Numbered from the stretch's first letter, positions 7,126 through 10,104 are shown. The stretch is DNA of 35,981 bases from Stramenopiles sp. TOSAG23-2 (GCA_900128395.1 LT649341.1:1-35981), one strand, 5' to 3'. Made by a program: numbers and translations. The notes: generated by a model from the letters alone, not told the origin.

Positions 7126-10104
7126 ATGGATAAAAAAGCTATATTAAATCATTTGCAAATACATCCAGGTATGGAAAGAAACCACATTGTCAGTATGGCA
7201 GTTGGTGCACGACCAATCCCAGCAAATATCAATGGAAGAAATGCTGTAGGCCGTGCTGTTAAAAATCGTCCAAAACAAAAAAAAATAACATTAAGACAGT
7301 TAAAACTAAAAGTAGGAACAAAAGTTACATGTACACCACAATCTAGGAGATATAACACCCAGACTGGTACTGTTACTAGTGATGGAAAAATCAAACAAGA
7401 TGGTCAAGACGGTAAACGGGTTACACTTATACAATTCGCAGAACCAGCTGGTTATGGAATTTCCCAACGAAATCCAAAGAAGCTTTTCTACAAAGAGCAT
7501 GTGTATTTTGAAGTTGGAGGAAATGTTTTACAAACCTTTCAACAATTGTGCGAAAATTATGAATCGAAATCAAGGCAAGACGAAATGCGGGAGGAATTAA
7601 AAAAAGCGAATATAGCTTCATTGCAGCCACTAATATCAATTATTAAAAATCGTATGGGTGCTGATTTCCCTAGATTCGTATATCGCACTTGTAGAGATGA
7701 TGAAATTGAAGAAGAGAATATAGGTAGTAGTAGCGGCAAAACGACATACAAGCCTCTTCGACCAAATGTTTCTACCGGTCAACCATCTTATGAAGATTAT
7801 AAAAAGCTAGAGCCAACTCTTTTTATCAAAGATTTAAATGATCATATTCGTAACGGGAGTATTTCTAATCGTCGAAGACTTCATTTCATTTCTACAAGTG
7901 CTGATCTTGATGTTGTACTATGGTGGTCACATTGGGGCTTAAAAGATCTTGTTGTTATTGAAAGCGAAAAATGCATTGAAAAACAAATCCAACCTATTGG
8001 AGTTGGATTGCGACAACATGAAAATTTAACTTATGATGGAATTCATCGTGGGTATGCTGCAGAGAGCAGGGAAGTTACGTTTGCTCAAGAAATTCCATTT
8101 GGTGCTTATCAAAAGTTAAACGTAACGTGGAAAGTAGAGAAAAGATATTTAACTAACGGACGAAAGGCTTATAAACATTATTTTCCGAATGAAAAGCAGC
8201 TTCAAGATTGTTTCAATAATGGGGAAATTGAAATTGAAACGGAGTACTTTGCTGCAAGCACAAACCCTTGCAAGATTAATTTGACGTTTAATGGTAGAGA
8301 CTGGAGTGAAAAGCATAGGACAGAATCAAACAGAGCTTTCATGATGAAAAAAGGTGGAAGAAAAGGATTAACCCATGAGCATGAAGCTGGCGAGTTTTTT
8401 GCCCTTGTGTGTTACCATAACATGGATATTAAAGTACCACATGGTGCATTTTATGAAATTGTAGTAACAACGCGTAATCCATTTAATGGAGAGGAAACGA
8501 GACATTTTACAAATATTCTTTTGACTGAAGTTATTGACGGTGATCAATGTGAAGAAAGAGATGCATCAAGAGATATTGTGAAAAAGAGCCTTCTAGAAGG
8601 TGCTGCTGCAGATATTGCAATTGCTAATTTTGATGTATGCGGAGATGACATGTCAAATCTAATCATTGCAAAAAAGAATGCCTCTGATAGAGCTAGCTCG
8701 GAAAATTCCATAACTGTAAGAGTTGATGTTGGAAACTGTTTTCGCTTTGGTCCGGGTGGAGAAACAAGCCAAATAAAAAATCAAGCTACTTATTCAAAGT
8801 CACCCGAGGAGCTTTTTGAAGATATCAGAGACTTTATACATAAAAAAGGCAACGATTCTGCAGATCAACTACGTGTCAGTGTATTTAACCAAATAGCATC
8901 TGCAACATTGCGAAATCAAGCAAAAAATATTATATCAAAATTGAATTTTGAGAAAAATATTCTAAGTTGGTTTGCTTCAACTGCGTGCAAAATGCCACTT
9001 CCGCAATGGCAAACACATTTTGAAACTTTATTGCAGCGAATTAGATTGATTGCAGAATTTGATAAGCCCCCAAGTATGGGCAATGGTCAATTCTTTTCCG
9101 GTAATTACCTTGATAGCACTCCTGTACCTGCAATAAGAGAAAGCTCATCGAAACCTTTGAAACAAATTAAAATATTGTCAACAAGGGCTACCGCAAAGCA
9201 TAAATTGTATGAACAAAACGGGTATGAAATTATTGATGTAACTAGTAAATCATCTAGTTCCAAATGGCGGCAGTTTTCTCCATTTTACAGTTTTAGTAGA
9301 CCTTTAAAAGTTCCTGGAATGAAGAAAGTAAAAAGTTGCACTGTTGAAGGAATTTGGCAAGGCCTTAAAACTTTTGAATTAGAGGATGGTTCTGTTGAAG
9401 GTATTGACGTAAGTAAGTTTCAAATTAAAAACATGAAGGGTCTTAAGCGTACGTTAAGAGGAAAATCGAACAACAAAAAAAAGCGAAAGAAAGTCATAGG
9501 CCATAAACTTGGAGATGACATTATTAAAGGGGCTGCTGGAGAAAATGGTGCACGAAAAAAAATTTACATTCCGCTATATCAAAAAGTTTTGAAAAAACGT
9601 TTAAATACGCTTGTAGAAGACTTACGAGAGAAAGCAACAAACAAAAAAATTGCTTTACTGGATTATCTTACAAATGGTGATTACATGGTTGATAAACCTT
9701 TATCTCATGCTGCACTGCTAAAACAGTACATTATTGACACTCACGAAGACAAAACTTATGATGATTTTGATGAATTGGTTGATAAATTGTCACCATCAAC
9801 AAAAAAAAAACGCGTCAGATCTGATGCCGAAGGCAGTTCAAGTAAAACGACGAAAGAACCATCAAAGAAAAAAAGCAAAAGACAACTCGCACCGTCGCTT
9901 ATTCAAAGATCTACCTCCTATAACACACCGTGTCGTTTTGCAGATCAAGGCTGCATTGAGACTTTTCATAGTACCTCAACTGAAAGATACTTGACTCATT
10001 ATTTCCAATGCCCAAAAAATCCAAATCCAGAAGCTCTAAATCGACAAAATAGTGTGGGGAGTTCAAATTCGAGTAGTAGTAATAGTAATGAAGTATTGTT
10101 ATAA
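7126..10104 (+). CDS. 992-aa multidomain protein: RAMA-like + R-S-E ADP-ribosyltransferase-like + atypical kinase-like + DUF6939 (NADAR-like) + C-terminal Zn finger
   Basis: Uninterrupted ORF with ATG. Motifs: GTVTSDGKI; VYR...HIRNGS...FISTS...ESREV...IP; MKKGG...HE...Y..MDIKVP...DIAIANFDVCG...N...RVDVG; IIDVTSK...FSPFY...VEGIWQGLK...LLDY.TN...KPLSHA; CRFADQGC...H...CP. Confidence 0.75.
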   Translation: MDKKAILNHLQIHPGMERNHIVSMAVGARPIPANINGRNAVGRAVKNRPKQKKITLRQLKLKVGTKVTCTPQSRRYNTQTGTVTSDGKIKQDGQDGKRVTLIQFAEPAGYGISQRNPKKLFYKEHVYFEVGGNVLQTFQQLCENYESKSRQDEMREELKKANIASLQPLISIIKNRMGADFPRFVYRTCRDDEIEEENIGSSSGKTTYKPLRPNVSTGQPSYEDYKKLEPTLFIKDLNDHIRNGSISNRRRLHFISTSADLDVVLWWSHWGLKDLVVIESEKCIEKQIQPIGVGLRQHENLTYDGIHRGYAAESREVTFAQEIPFGAYQKLNVTWKVEKRYLTNGRKAYKHYFPNEKQLQDCFNNGEIEIETEYFAASTNPCKINLTFNGRDWSEKHRTESNRAFMMKKGGRKGLTHEHEAGEFFALVCYHNMDIKVPHGAFYEIVVTTRNPFNGEETRHFTNILLTEVIDGDQCEERDASRDIVKKSLLEGAAADIAIANFDVCGDDMSNLIIAKKNASDRASSENSITVRVDVGNCFRFGPGGETSQIKNQATYSKSPEELFEDIRDFIHKKGNDSADQLRVSVFNQIASATLRNQAKNIISKLNFEKNILSWFASTACKMPLPQWQTHFETLLQRIRLIAEFDKPPSMGNGQFFSGNYLDSTPVPAIRESSSKPLKQIKILSTRATAKHKLYEQNGYEIIDVTSKSSSSKWRQFSPFYSFSRPLKVPGMKKVKSCTVEGIWQGLKTFELEDGSVEGIDVSKFQIKNMKGLKRTLRGKSNNKKKRKKVIGHKLGDDIIKGAAGENGARKKIYIPLYQKVLKKRLNTLVEDLREKATNKKIALLDYLTNGDYMVDKPLSHAALLKQYIIDTHEDKTYDDFDELVDKLSPSTKKKRVRSDAEGSSSKTTKEPSKKKSKRQLAPSLIQRSTSYNTPCRFADQGCIETFHSTSTERYLTHYFQCPKNPNPEALNRQNSVGSSNSSSSNSNEVLL

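Follow-up and report, generated by a model that had tools for sequence, protein, structure and literature searches.

An intron-less open reading frame (ORF) of a marine protist, P0001, encodes 992 amino acids in which an ADP-ribosyltransferase (ART), an atypical kinase and a DUF6939 domain follow each other in one chain. The ORF lies in a 35,981-nucleotide stretch of Stramenopiles sp. TOSAG23-2 (LT649341.1), which we analysed as a whole and refer to as the window, positions being counted from its first letter. On balance, structural modelling and residue conservation make it likely that DUF6939 belongs to the NADAR superfamily as a subfamily that has gone unrecognised, sister to the antitoxins of DarT1 toxins, and it may well reverse the mark set by the ART to which it is fused. 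The features of the ORF and of its DUF6939 domain are as follows:

7126..10104 (+): ORF P0001; order: N-terminal domain, R-S-E ART, atypical kinase, DUF6939/NADAR, low-complexity basic tail
9166..9735 (+): DUF6939 domain (Pfam PF22075), residues 681-870, with a NADAR fold in the predicted model
9229-9249, 9274-9288 and 9310-9318 (+): motifs IIDVTSK, FSPFY and VPG
9340-9375 (+): motif TVEGIWQGLKTF
9433-9453, 9550-9579, 9655-9675 and 9694-9711 (+): motifs MKGLKRT, ARKKIYIPLY, LLDYLTN and KPLSHA
9346..9369 (+): E741...K748, equivalents of NADAR E88 and K95
9445..9450 (+): K774-R775, each conserved in 121 of 121 sequences
9661..9681 (+): D846 and D852, candidates for the catalytic acid corresponding to D171 of the E. 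coli C7 NADAR

Fold and active site of the DUF6939 domain

A first-pass annotation of the sequence had recognised DUF6939 by eight motifs and proposed that it adopts a NADAR fold. All eight motifs are in frame within the ORF, and a Pfam scan confirmed the identity of the domain, with PF22075 matching residues 695-865 over profile positions 11-167 of 167 (E 8.8e-38, 130 bits vs. a cut-off of 27). Searching with the domain yielded at least 883 relatives (protein clusters) from many bacterial phyla, phages, giant viruses and protist-type proteins, the best 120 of which were aligned.

The AlphaFold2 model of the domain (pLDDT 96.4) was compared with 48,161 solved chains, and the three solved NADARs took ranks 1-3: 8bat (Z 9.6, 156 residues aligned, rmsd 3.8), 2b3w (Z 6.9) and 8bau (Z 6.7), the next non-NADAR chain having a Z of 5.0. 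Foldseek returned 8bat as sole match under E 0.001 (E 4.2e-4, probability 1.00, TM 0.52), and both comparisons thus put NADAR structures first, as the annotation had anticipated.

Sequence comparison agrees independently with a NADAR fold. We built a profile from 12 DarT1-type NADARs (2 from genomes, 10 of 29 plasmid matches), to which hhalign aligned DUF6939 over 151 columns with an E of 1.2e-5. With the corresponding hidden Markov model (HMM) 58 DUF6939 ORFs scored above the first unrelated one among 830 ORFs, reversed DUF6939 sequences reaching at most -0.7 bits, and four bacterial DUF6939 proteins passed the 27-bit cut-off of PF22397 (27.3-30.2 bits). P0001 did not match PF22397 at E 0.1, its 96% identical relative P0147 scored 17.7 bits against the cut-off of 27, and PF08719, the family of YbiA-type NADARs, had no match in P0001. 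In its own genome, possibly incomplete as assembled, no YbiA-type NADAR was found. The parallel that had been drawn to the FSNFY motif of YbiA holds for the fold and the Glu, but the DarT1-associated (BC4488) subfamily is closer than the YbiA type. In searches of PDB sequences the profile reached 8bat only at E 1.1; its best matches, RNF8 and HRD1, were confined to a single helix and were rejected as compositional, and Rad50, found with the single sequence (E 0.29), is not relevant.

The Glu singled out as conserved at position 9346 is E741 (GAA codon 9346-9348), which aligns with E88 of the E. coli NADAR. It is kept in 120 and K748 in all of the 121 aligned relatives, and the region containing both aligns with SVESAFQSSK of 8bat. 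K774 corresponds to K115 of DarT1-type NADARs in the joint alignment as well as in hhalign. In the E. coli C7 NADAR E88, K95 and D171 are catalytic, E88 and K95 contacting the distal ribose and the pyrophosphate, K115 is required for rescue in cells, and E173 is dispensable (PMC11543638, in part); the residue that defines a NADAR family is located in the last strand (PMC11125620, in part). Two Asp residues of DUF6939 may take the place of D171. D846, present in 121 of 121 relatives and 15 of 15 kinase-fused proteins, ends the last strand of the model (strand 161-166), and D852, present in 101/121 and 12/15, is the position to which MAFFT and hhalign assign D171. We favour D846 as the more likely of the two; in either register the third catalytic acid is predicted to be an Asp, as in the DarT1 type.

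ART and kinase of the protist protein

The first-pass annotation had also noted a fusion of DUF6939 to an ART domain. The ART is indeed present, upstream in the same ORF, but an intact atypical kinase between the two domains had been overlooked:

7654..8130 (+): R-S-E (cholera-toxin-clade) ART, residues ~177-335
7684, 7891 and 8071 (+): ART triad R187, S256 and E316, with motif S256-T-S258
8134..9075 (+): atypical kinase of the actin-fragmin kinase (AFK)/PI4KII/CtkA/HipA type, residues 337-650

No Pfam family was called above threshold for the ART, DUF7587 reaching E 0.017 on the cut-out domain, and the assignment is based on the triad, the ESM Atlas and the fold search. R187 and E316 are each kept in 31 of 32 relatives, S256 and H240 in all 32; the ESM Atlas relates the domain to DUF7587/NarE clusters (0.91-0.95); and VIA-align, using a model of the ART and kinase, gave TreX (Z 8.7, 116/128 residues, rmsd 3.1), pertussis S1 (Z 8.0) and EcPltA (Z 7.6). 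The kinase, to which neither Pfam nor NCBIfam gave a match, was identified by VIA-align (1cja, Z 12.6; 4hnd, Z 12.1; 3akj, Z 11.9; 4pu3, Z 11.1) and Foldseek (1cja, E 1.7e-5), and its residues K408, E423, N501-x-D503, N511 and D534, which make up a full catalytic set with Lys, Glu, catalytic Asp, Asn and metal-binding Asp, are kept in 24-25 of 25 relatives. ART and kinase were modelled as one rigid unit with a pTM of 0.86.

A search with the ART-kinase part returned 46 representatives, and among 51 proteins examined twelve (11 distinct) showed the layout ART-kinase-DUF6939 with all three sites intact, four more being kinase-DUF6939 proteins. The three-domain order is retained among proteins that are only ~20-30% identical, and we infer that the relatives sharing it are eukaryotic also beyond the EukProt cluster. 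Other layouts were ART-kinase-HIT (P0190), SAP-ART-kinase (P0167) and, in P0170 and P0171, respectively, three kinase copies with NUDIX, PTP and SH2 domains and ART repeats with chitin-binding domains.

DUF6939 in bacteria, viruses and the protist window

A survey of bacterial neighbourhoods had been suggested as a check on a link to ARTs. We inspected the best 80 of 526 DUF6939 relatives in GTDB, for 78 of which the gene was called, and scanned 126 operon-like neighbours and long DUF6939 ORFs together with 86 other adjacent genes. DarT lies directly upstream of DUF6939 in four of the 78 loci and Tpt1/KptA directly downstream in two, PARG, NUDIX-NrtR and a fused macrodomain occurring in one each. 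ART genes and fusions to ADP-ribose hydrolases were thus found, with 69 of the 78 loci lacking such a link. The 33 longer DUF6939 proteins, 25 of which were rescanned, carry fusions to microbial PARG (3), NADAR (1), macro (1), DprA/SLOG (1) and WYL (4) domains. The loci L042:4363-8691 and L080:3766-10795 share a cluster of DUF6939, Tpt1/KptA, (NUDIX), an AAA ATPase, another gene and ThiF, with an RNA ligase upstream in L080, and DUF1810 is found near DUF6939 in two unrelated loci (L072:5477-5893, L146:4690-5496).

The reciprocal search, for which a profile of five DUF6939-linked DarT domains was used, gave at least 520 metagenome matches. In the best 80 of these, DUF6939 was adjacent to DarT on the same strand in 76 loci (68 upstream, 8 downstream), corresponding to 46 of 50 clusters at 95% and 27 of 29 at 80% identity. 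Of the four remaining loci, two are truncated by contig ends, and in the other two DarT is flanked on either side by different genes. The pairing rate may fall further out since many loci are related gut/rumen sequences closest to the query. Within 2.5 kb of the DarT loci no DarT1-type NADAR, YbiA, PARG or macrodomain was matched, the single-sequence queries being of limited reach, and Pfam detected none of these in 29 ORFs from nine of the loci. The linked DarTs retain the catalytic Glu (80/80), Met (80/80) and Asn (79/80) as well as HFT. In DarT1 this Asn holds guanine, and the thymine-specific DarT2 has a His (PMC11543638, in part). Judged from gene order and conservation, DUF6939 probably serves one bacterial branch as an additional kind of DarT antitoxin and is probably an antidote family that has gone unrecognised. 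PADLOC 2.0 contains no profile for DUF6939 as a DarT antitoxin type, and DarT-DUF6939 pairs would consequently escape detection as defence systems.

A TerY-like domain is frequently joined to the DarT partner (PADLOC E 1e-46 to 1e-52; many of the loci L102-L181, e.g. L107:2444-3907, L106:2450-3907 and L174:2447-3928), and the clusters concerned also contain protein kinases and BspA-type LRR genes. In L062:4737-10065 and L090:2706-8473 DarT-DUF6939 is followed by a ~520-aa gene and a ZorB-like gene, and because of these genes the pair may belong to a larger defence operon.

DUF6939 is present in seven viral loci, four of which are giant-virus-like and one of which has DarT upstream; a viral scan with one DarT1-type NADAR query sequence gave no match. 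On three giant-virus-like contigs (L087, L088, L089) a stand-alone DUF6939 is located two genes downstream of an mRNA capping enzyme (Pfam on L087). Kinase-fused and giant-virus DUF6939 group together (SH-aLRT 94) in a quick tree that gives no direction of transfer. The locus L008:1-6451, labelled as a Bacteroidetes metagenome-assembled genome, has 26% GC and a TFIIS gene beside DUF6939, groups with the giant-virus copies and is probably a mis-binned viral contig.

In the protist P0001 is a single-copy gene, as searches of its own genome by protein and by family indicate, and its neighbours are eukaryotic (Ras-family, OATP, Rad4 and FAM135 genes by Pfam). Its GC content at third codon positions (GC3), 0.24, is inside the range of the neighbours (0.20-0.29) and hence gives no sign of recent insertion. 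EukProt holds a protein 96% identical to P0001 (P0147). At least half of the sampled P0001 words were contained in 20 of 21 listed sequencing runs, 19 of which are RNA runs, several of them poly(A) or oligo-dT and most of them marine. In three of four runs examined one contig, free of intron joints, covers the stretch from the catalytic Glu of the ART across the kinase and into DUF6939; as this evidence consists of contigs, DNA carry-over is possible and transcript ends and level cannot be read from it. Further features of the ORF and its surroundings are:

7252..7515 (+): N-terminal domain with a weak RAMA-like match (Pfam RAMA E 0.054 for the whole protein, E 0.0077 for the cut-out), below the Pfam cut-off
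9802..9888 (+): Lys/Arg-rich stretch of the tail, seen in the sequence
7916-10128, 7911-10202 and 7780-9562: RNA contigs over P0001, no joints
6837-7096: outside RNA-contig coverage
9867: extra A in a poly-A run of the tail in one RNA contig, downstream of DUF6939, probably an assembly error
10502-10720 (+): 72-aa ORF with RNA contigs in two of four runs and only a weak DUF433 match
3756-6695 (+): upstream gene, in which a GT28/EryCIII-type glycosyltransferase is joined to a domain resembling EcKL/APH kinases
53-3007 (+): fragment of a Ras-family GTPase, behind which come a long stretch of low complexity and a weak match to a Ras-binding domain

The N-terminal domain might be a DNA-binding module and the Lys/Arg-rich stretch a nuclear localisation signal. 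P0001 has neither a signal peptide nor a transmembrane segment (maximal 19-residue hydropathy 1.05; N-terminus 0.33), NCBIfam returned nothing useful for it, and PADLOC matched neither P0001 nor DUF6939.

Proposed function, alternatives and known systems

In the mechanism we propose, DUF6939 would bind ADP-ribose through E741 and K748, and an Asp close to the last strand, more probably D846 than D852, would cleave by hydrolysis the N-glycosidic bond that links ADP-ribose to a nucleobase, most likely guanine; guanine marks set by the R-S-E enzyme ScARP are reversed by NADARs (PMC12945103, in part). The protist protein would be a writer and eraser in a single chain: its ART would add ADP-ribose from NAD+ and DUF6939 would take this mark off again, shielding the cell from its own enzyme, while the kinase, folded with the ART as one unit in the model, would serve as a second effector or as a switch. 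In one bacterial branch DUF6939 would be the antitoxin of a DarT toxin. We regard it as likely that DUF6939 hydrolyses ADP-ribose conjugates and, with somewhat less confidence, that its substrate is a nucleobase adduct; the chance that it acts on the product of the fused ART itself appears slightly better than even. An extended scenario, in which P0001 is a one-chain eukaryotic counterpart of DarTG, i.e. a nuclear antiviral ART acting on DNA or RNA bases that is restrained by DUF6939 and switched by the kinase, with the stand-alone copies of giant viruses as counter-defence and the bacterial ones as further DarT antitoxins, is put forward only tentatively.

Several observations weigh against the proposal that DUF6939 erases base marks of a partner ART, and some of them fit other explanations. 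The structural match itself is moderate (TM 0.52, rmsd 3.8-6.1 Å, 19-20% identity, predicted model), and the register of the catalytic Asp is split between the model strand, which points to D846, and the two aligners, which point to D852. The weak RAMA match was not repeated in any of 20 relatives of P0001. Since most bacterial DUF6939 copies are orphan, with no ART or ADP-ribose gene adjoining in 69 of the 78 loci, a role as general guard or in RNA repair fits as well (PMC9503650, in part): a NADAR-type hydrolase would remove the ADP-ribose that foreign ARTs or RNA repair leave behind (Tpt1 by-products, capped RNA ends), or cleave a small N-glycoside as YbiA does, and the fusion would reflect a shared pathway. 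Neighbours such as Tpt1/KptA, NUDIX, RNA ligase and PARG, the giant-virus copies near a capping enzyme, and orphan NADARs that are active in vitro and differ in vivo (PMC11125620, in part) are in line with this. Moreover, six ART-kinase relatives extend 150 or more residues past the kinase and have no DUF6939, so that an eraser is not obligatory. One of these six carries a HIT hydrolase, however, which in P0190 occupies the very slot of DUF6939, and the close pairing with one DarT branch, with no other hydrolase found nearby, and the domain order preserved at low identity also speak against a mere guard, which we consider unlikely though not negligible.

Other points concern the target. The guanine-recognising Gln of pierisin/ScARP ARTs is located two residues ahead of the catalytic Glu; P0001 has S-x-E there, with S314, kept in 29 of 32 relatives, in place of the Gln of ScARP. 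In ScARP it is a Gln that holds guanine (PMC12945103, in part). The DUF6939-linked DarT branch is likewise devoid of the DarT1 guanine contacts K74/Y75. The closest structural matches of the ART, TreX, the target of which is FtsZ (PMC11606950, in part), and pertussis S1, modify proteins, the best match of the kinase is actin-fragmin kinase, and ART and kinase form one rigid predicted unit. The ART might thus modify a protein, or use up NAD+, together with the kinase, and DUF6939 might bind the ADP-ribosylated product or cleave protein- or small-molecule-linked ADP-ribose. Yet TreX is homologous to Scabin-like ARTs (PMC11606950, in part), characterised NADARs act on N-glycosides of bases or on riboflavin intermediates (PMC11125620, PMC12945103 and PMC11543638, each in part), the relative P0167 has an N-terminal SAP domain, and P0001 combines the lack of a secretion signal with a basic tail; we consider this reading rather improbable. 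Still less probable, indeed very unlikely, is a catalytically remodelled or dead NADAR fold that only binds or acts sterically. The region of the last strand is unlike that of all solved NADARs, the invariant H793, N850 and PLSH861 of DUF6939 have no clear counterpart in them, and L848 of P0001 stands where the family usually has Glu, Asp or Thr; on the other hand, E, K, K, R and D are (nearly) invariant in 121 relatives and 15 fused proteins, and the E173 position is dispensable in the E. coli C7 NADAR (PMC11543638, in part).

The proposal that DUF6939 reverses the mark of its partner ART provides candidate catalytic residues and a testable function for the at least 883 protein clusters of the family, and suggests that microbial eukaryotes may ADP-ribosylate bases reversibly by means of a fused writer-kinase-eraser. 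A literature search, the scope of which excluded most subscription papers and the InterPro/Pfam clan texts, found no paper naming DUF6939, PF22075, DarTG3 or DUF7587, and no title or beginning of an abstract describing a DarT-DUF6939 pair or an ART-kinase-DUF6939 fusion; DUF6939 is not named in passages of PMC13069673 and one of its supplements. The ART-kinase-DUF6939 protein is apparently undescribed, and an earlier remark on the DUF6939 fold may exist elsewhere.

Among known systems the DarT1-associated NADAR (BC4488 subfamily, DarG1, Geobacter lovleyi 8bat, PF22397, PMC11543638) shares with DUF6939 the fold (Z 9.6), the motif pairs DVTSK/EVSSK, SPF/SAF, VEGIWQGLKVF/VESAFQSSKVF and LKR/AKK, the equivalents of E88, K95 and K115, an Asp instead of Glu or His near the last strand and, in a bacterial subset, the operon with a DarT toxin. 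DUF6939, however, is only ~20% identical to it, forms a separate tree branch, has invariant His residues of its own and is mostly orphan. Most of the N-terminal extension and the C-terminal tail are missing: ~30 N-terminal DarT1-type residues are unmatched in the joint alignment, and only one strand and the helix of the full beta-beta-alpha extension are left. Its partner DarT belongs to another branch than DarT1 and is fused to TerY-like or membrane-anchored N-terminal domains, and DUF6939 also occurs in protist-type proteins, fused there to a kinase and an ART of the R-S-E type. DarTG2, with a macrodomain, and DarHTG/DarG3, with an ARH-like antitoxin of ADP-ribosylglycohydrolase fold (PMC13069673, in part), also pair DarT with an ADP-ribose hydrolase, but neither antitoxin has a fold related to that of DUF6939. 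YbiA-type NADARs (E. coli YbiA 2b3w, Phytophthora 8bau, PF08719) have the core fold and the E43/K50 equivalents in common with DUF6939, which does not match PF08719, has an Asp for the last-strand Glu and lacks the WGIG segment. The kinase shares fold and catalytic residue set with actin-fragmin kinase, PI4KII, CtkA and HipA at 10-14% identity, and differs from them in being joined directly to an ART. YarT-YbiA sets the precedent of a NADAR whose partner is an ART other than DarT, YarT being an H-Y-E ART encoded by a separate gene (PMC11125620, in part), whereas the ART of P0001 is of the R-S-E type and fused. The nearest functional precedent is ScARP/Scabin/pierisin with SCO5665, where a NADAR reverses the action of an R-S-E ART on guanine or cytidine; ScARP is secreted, separate from the hydrolase and recognises the base through a Gln (PMC12945103, in part), whereas P0001 is a single intracellular chain that has S-x-E and includes a kinase.

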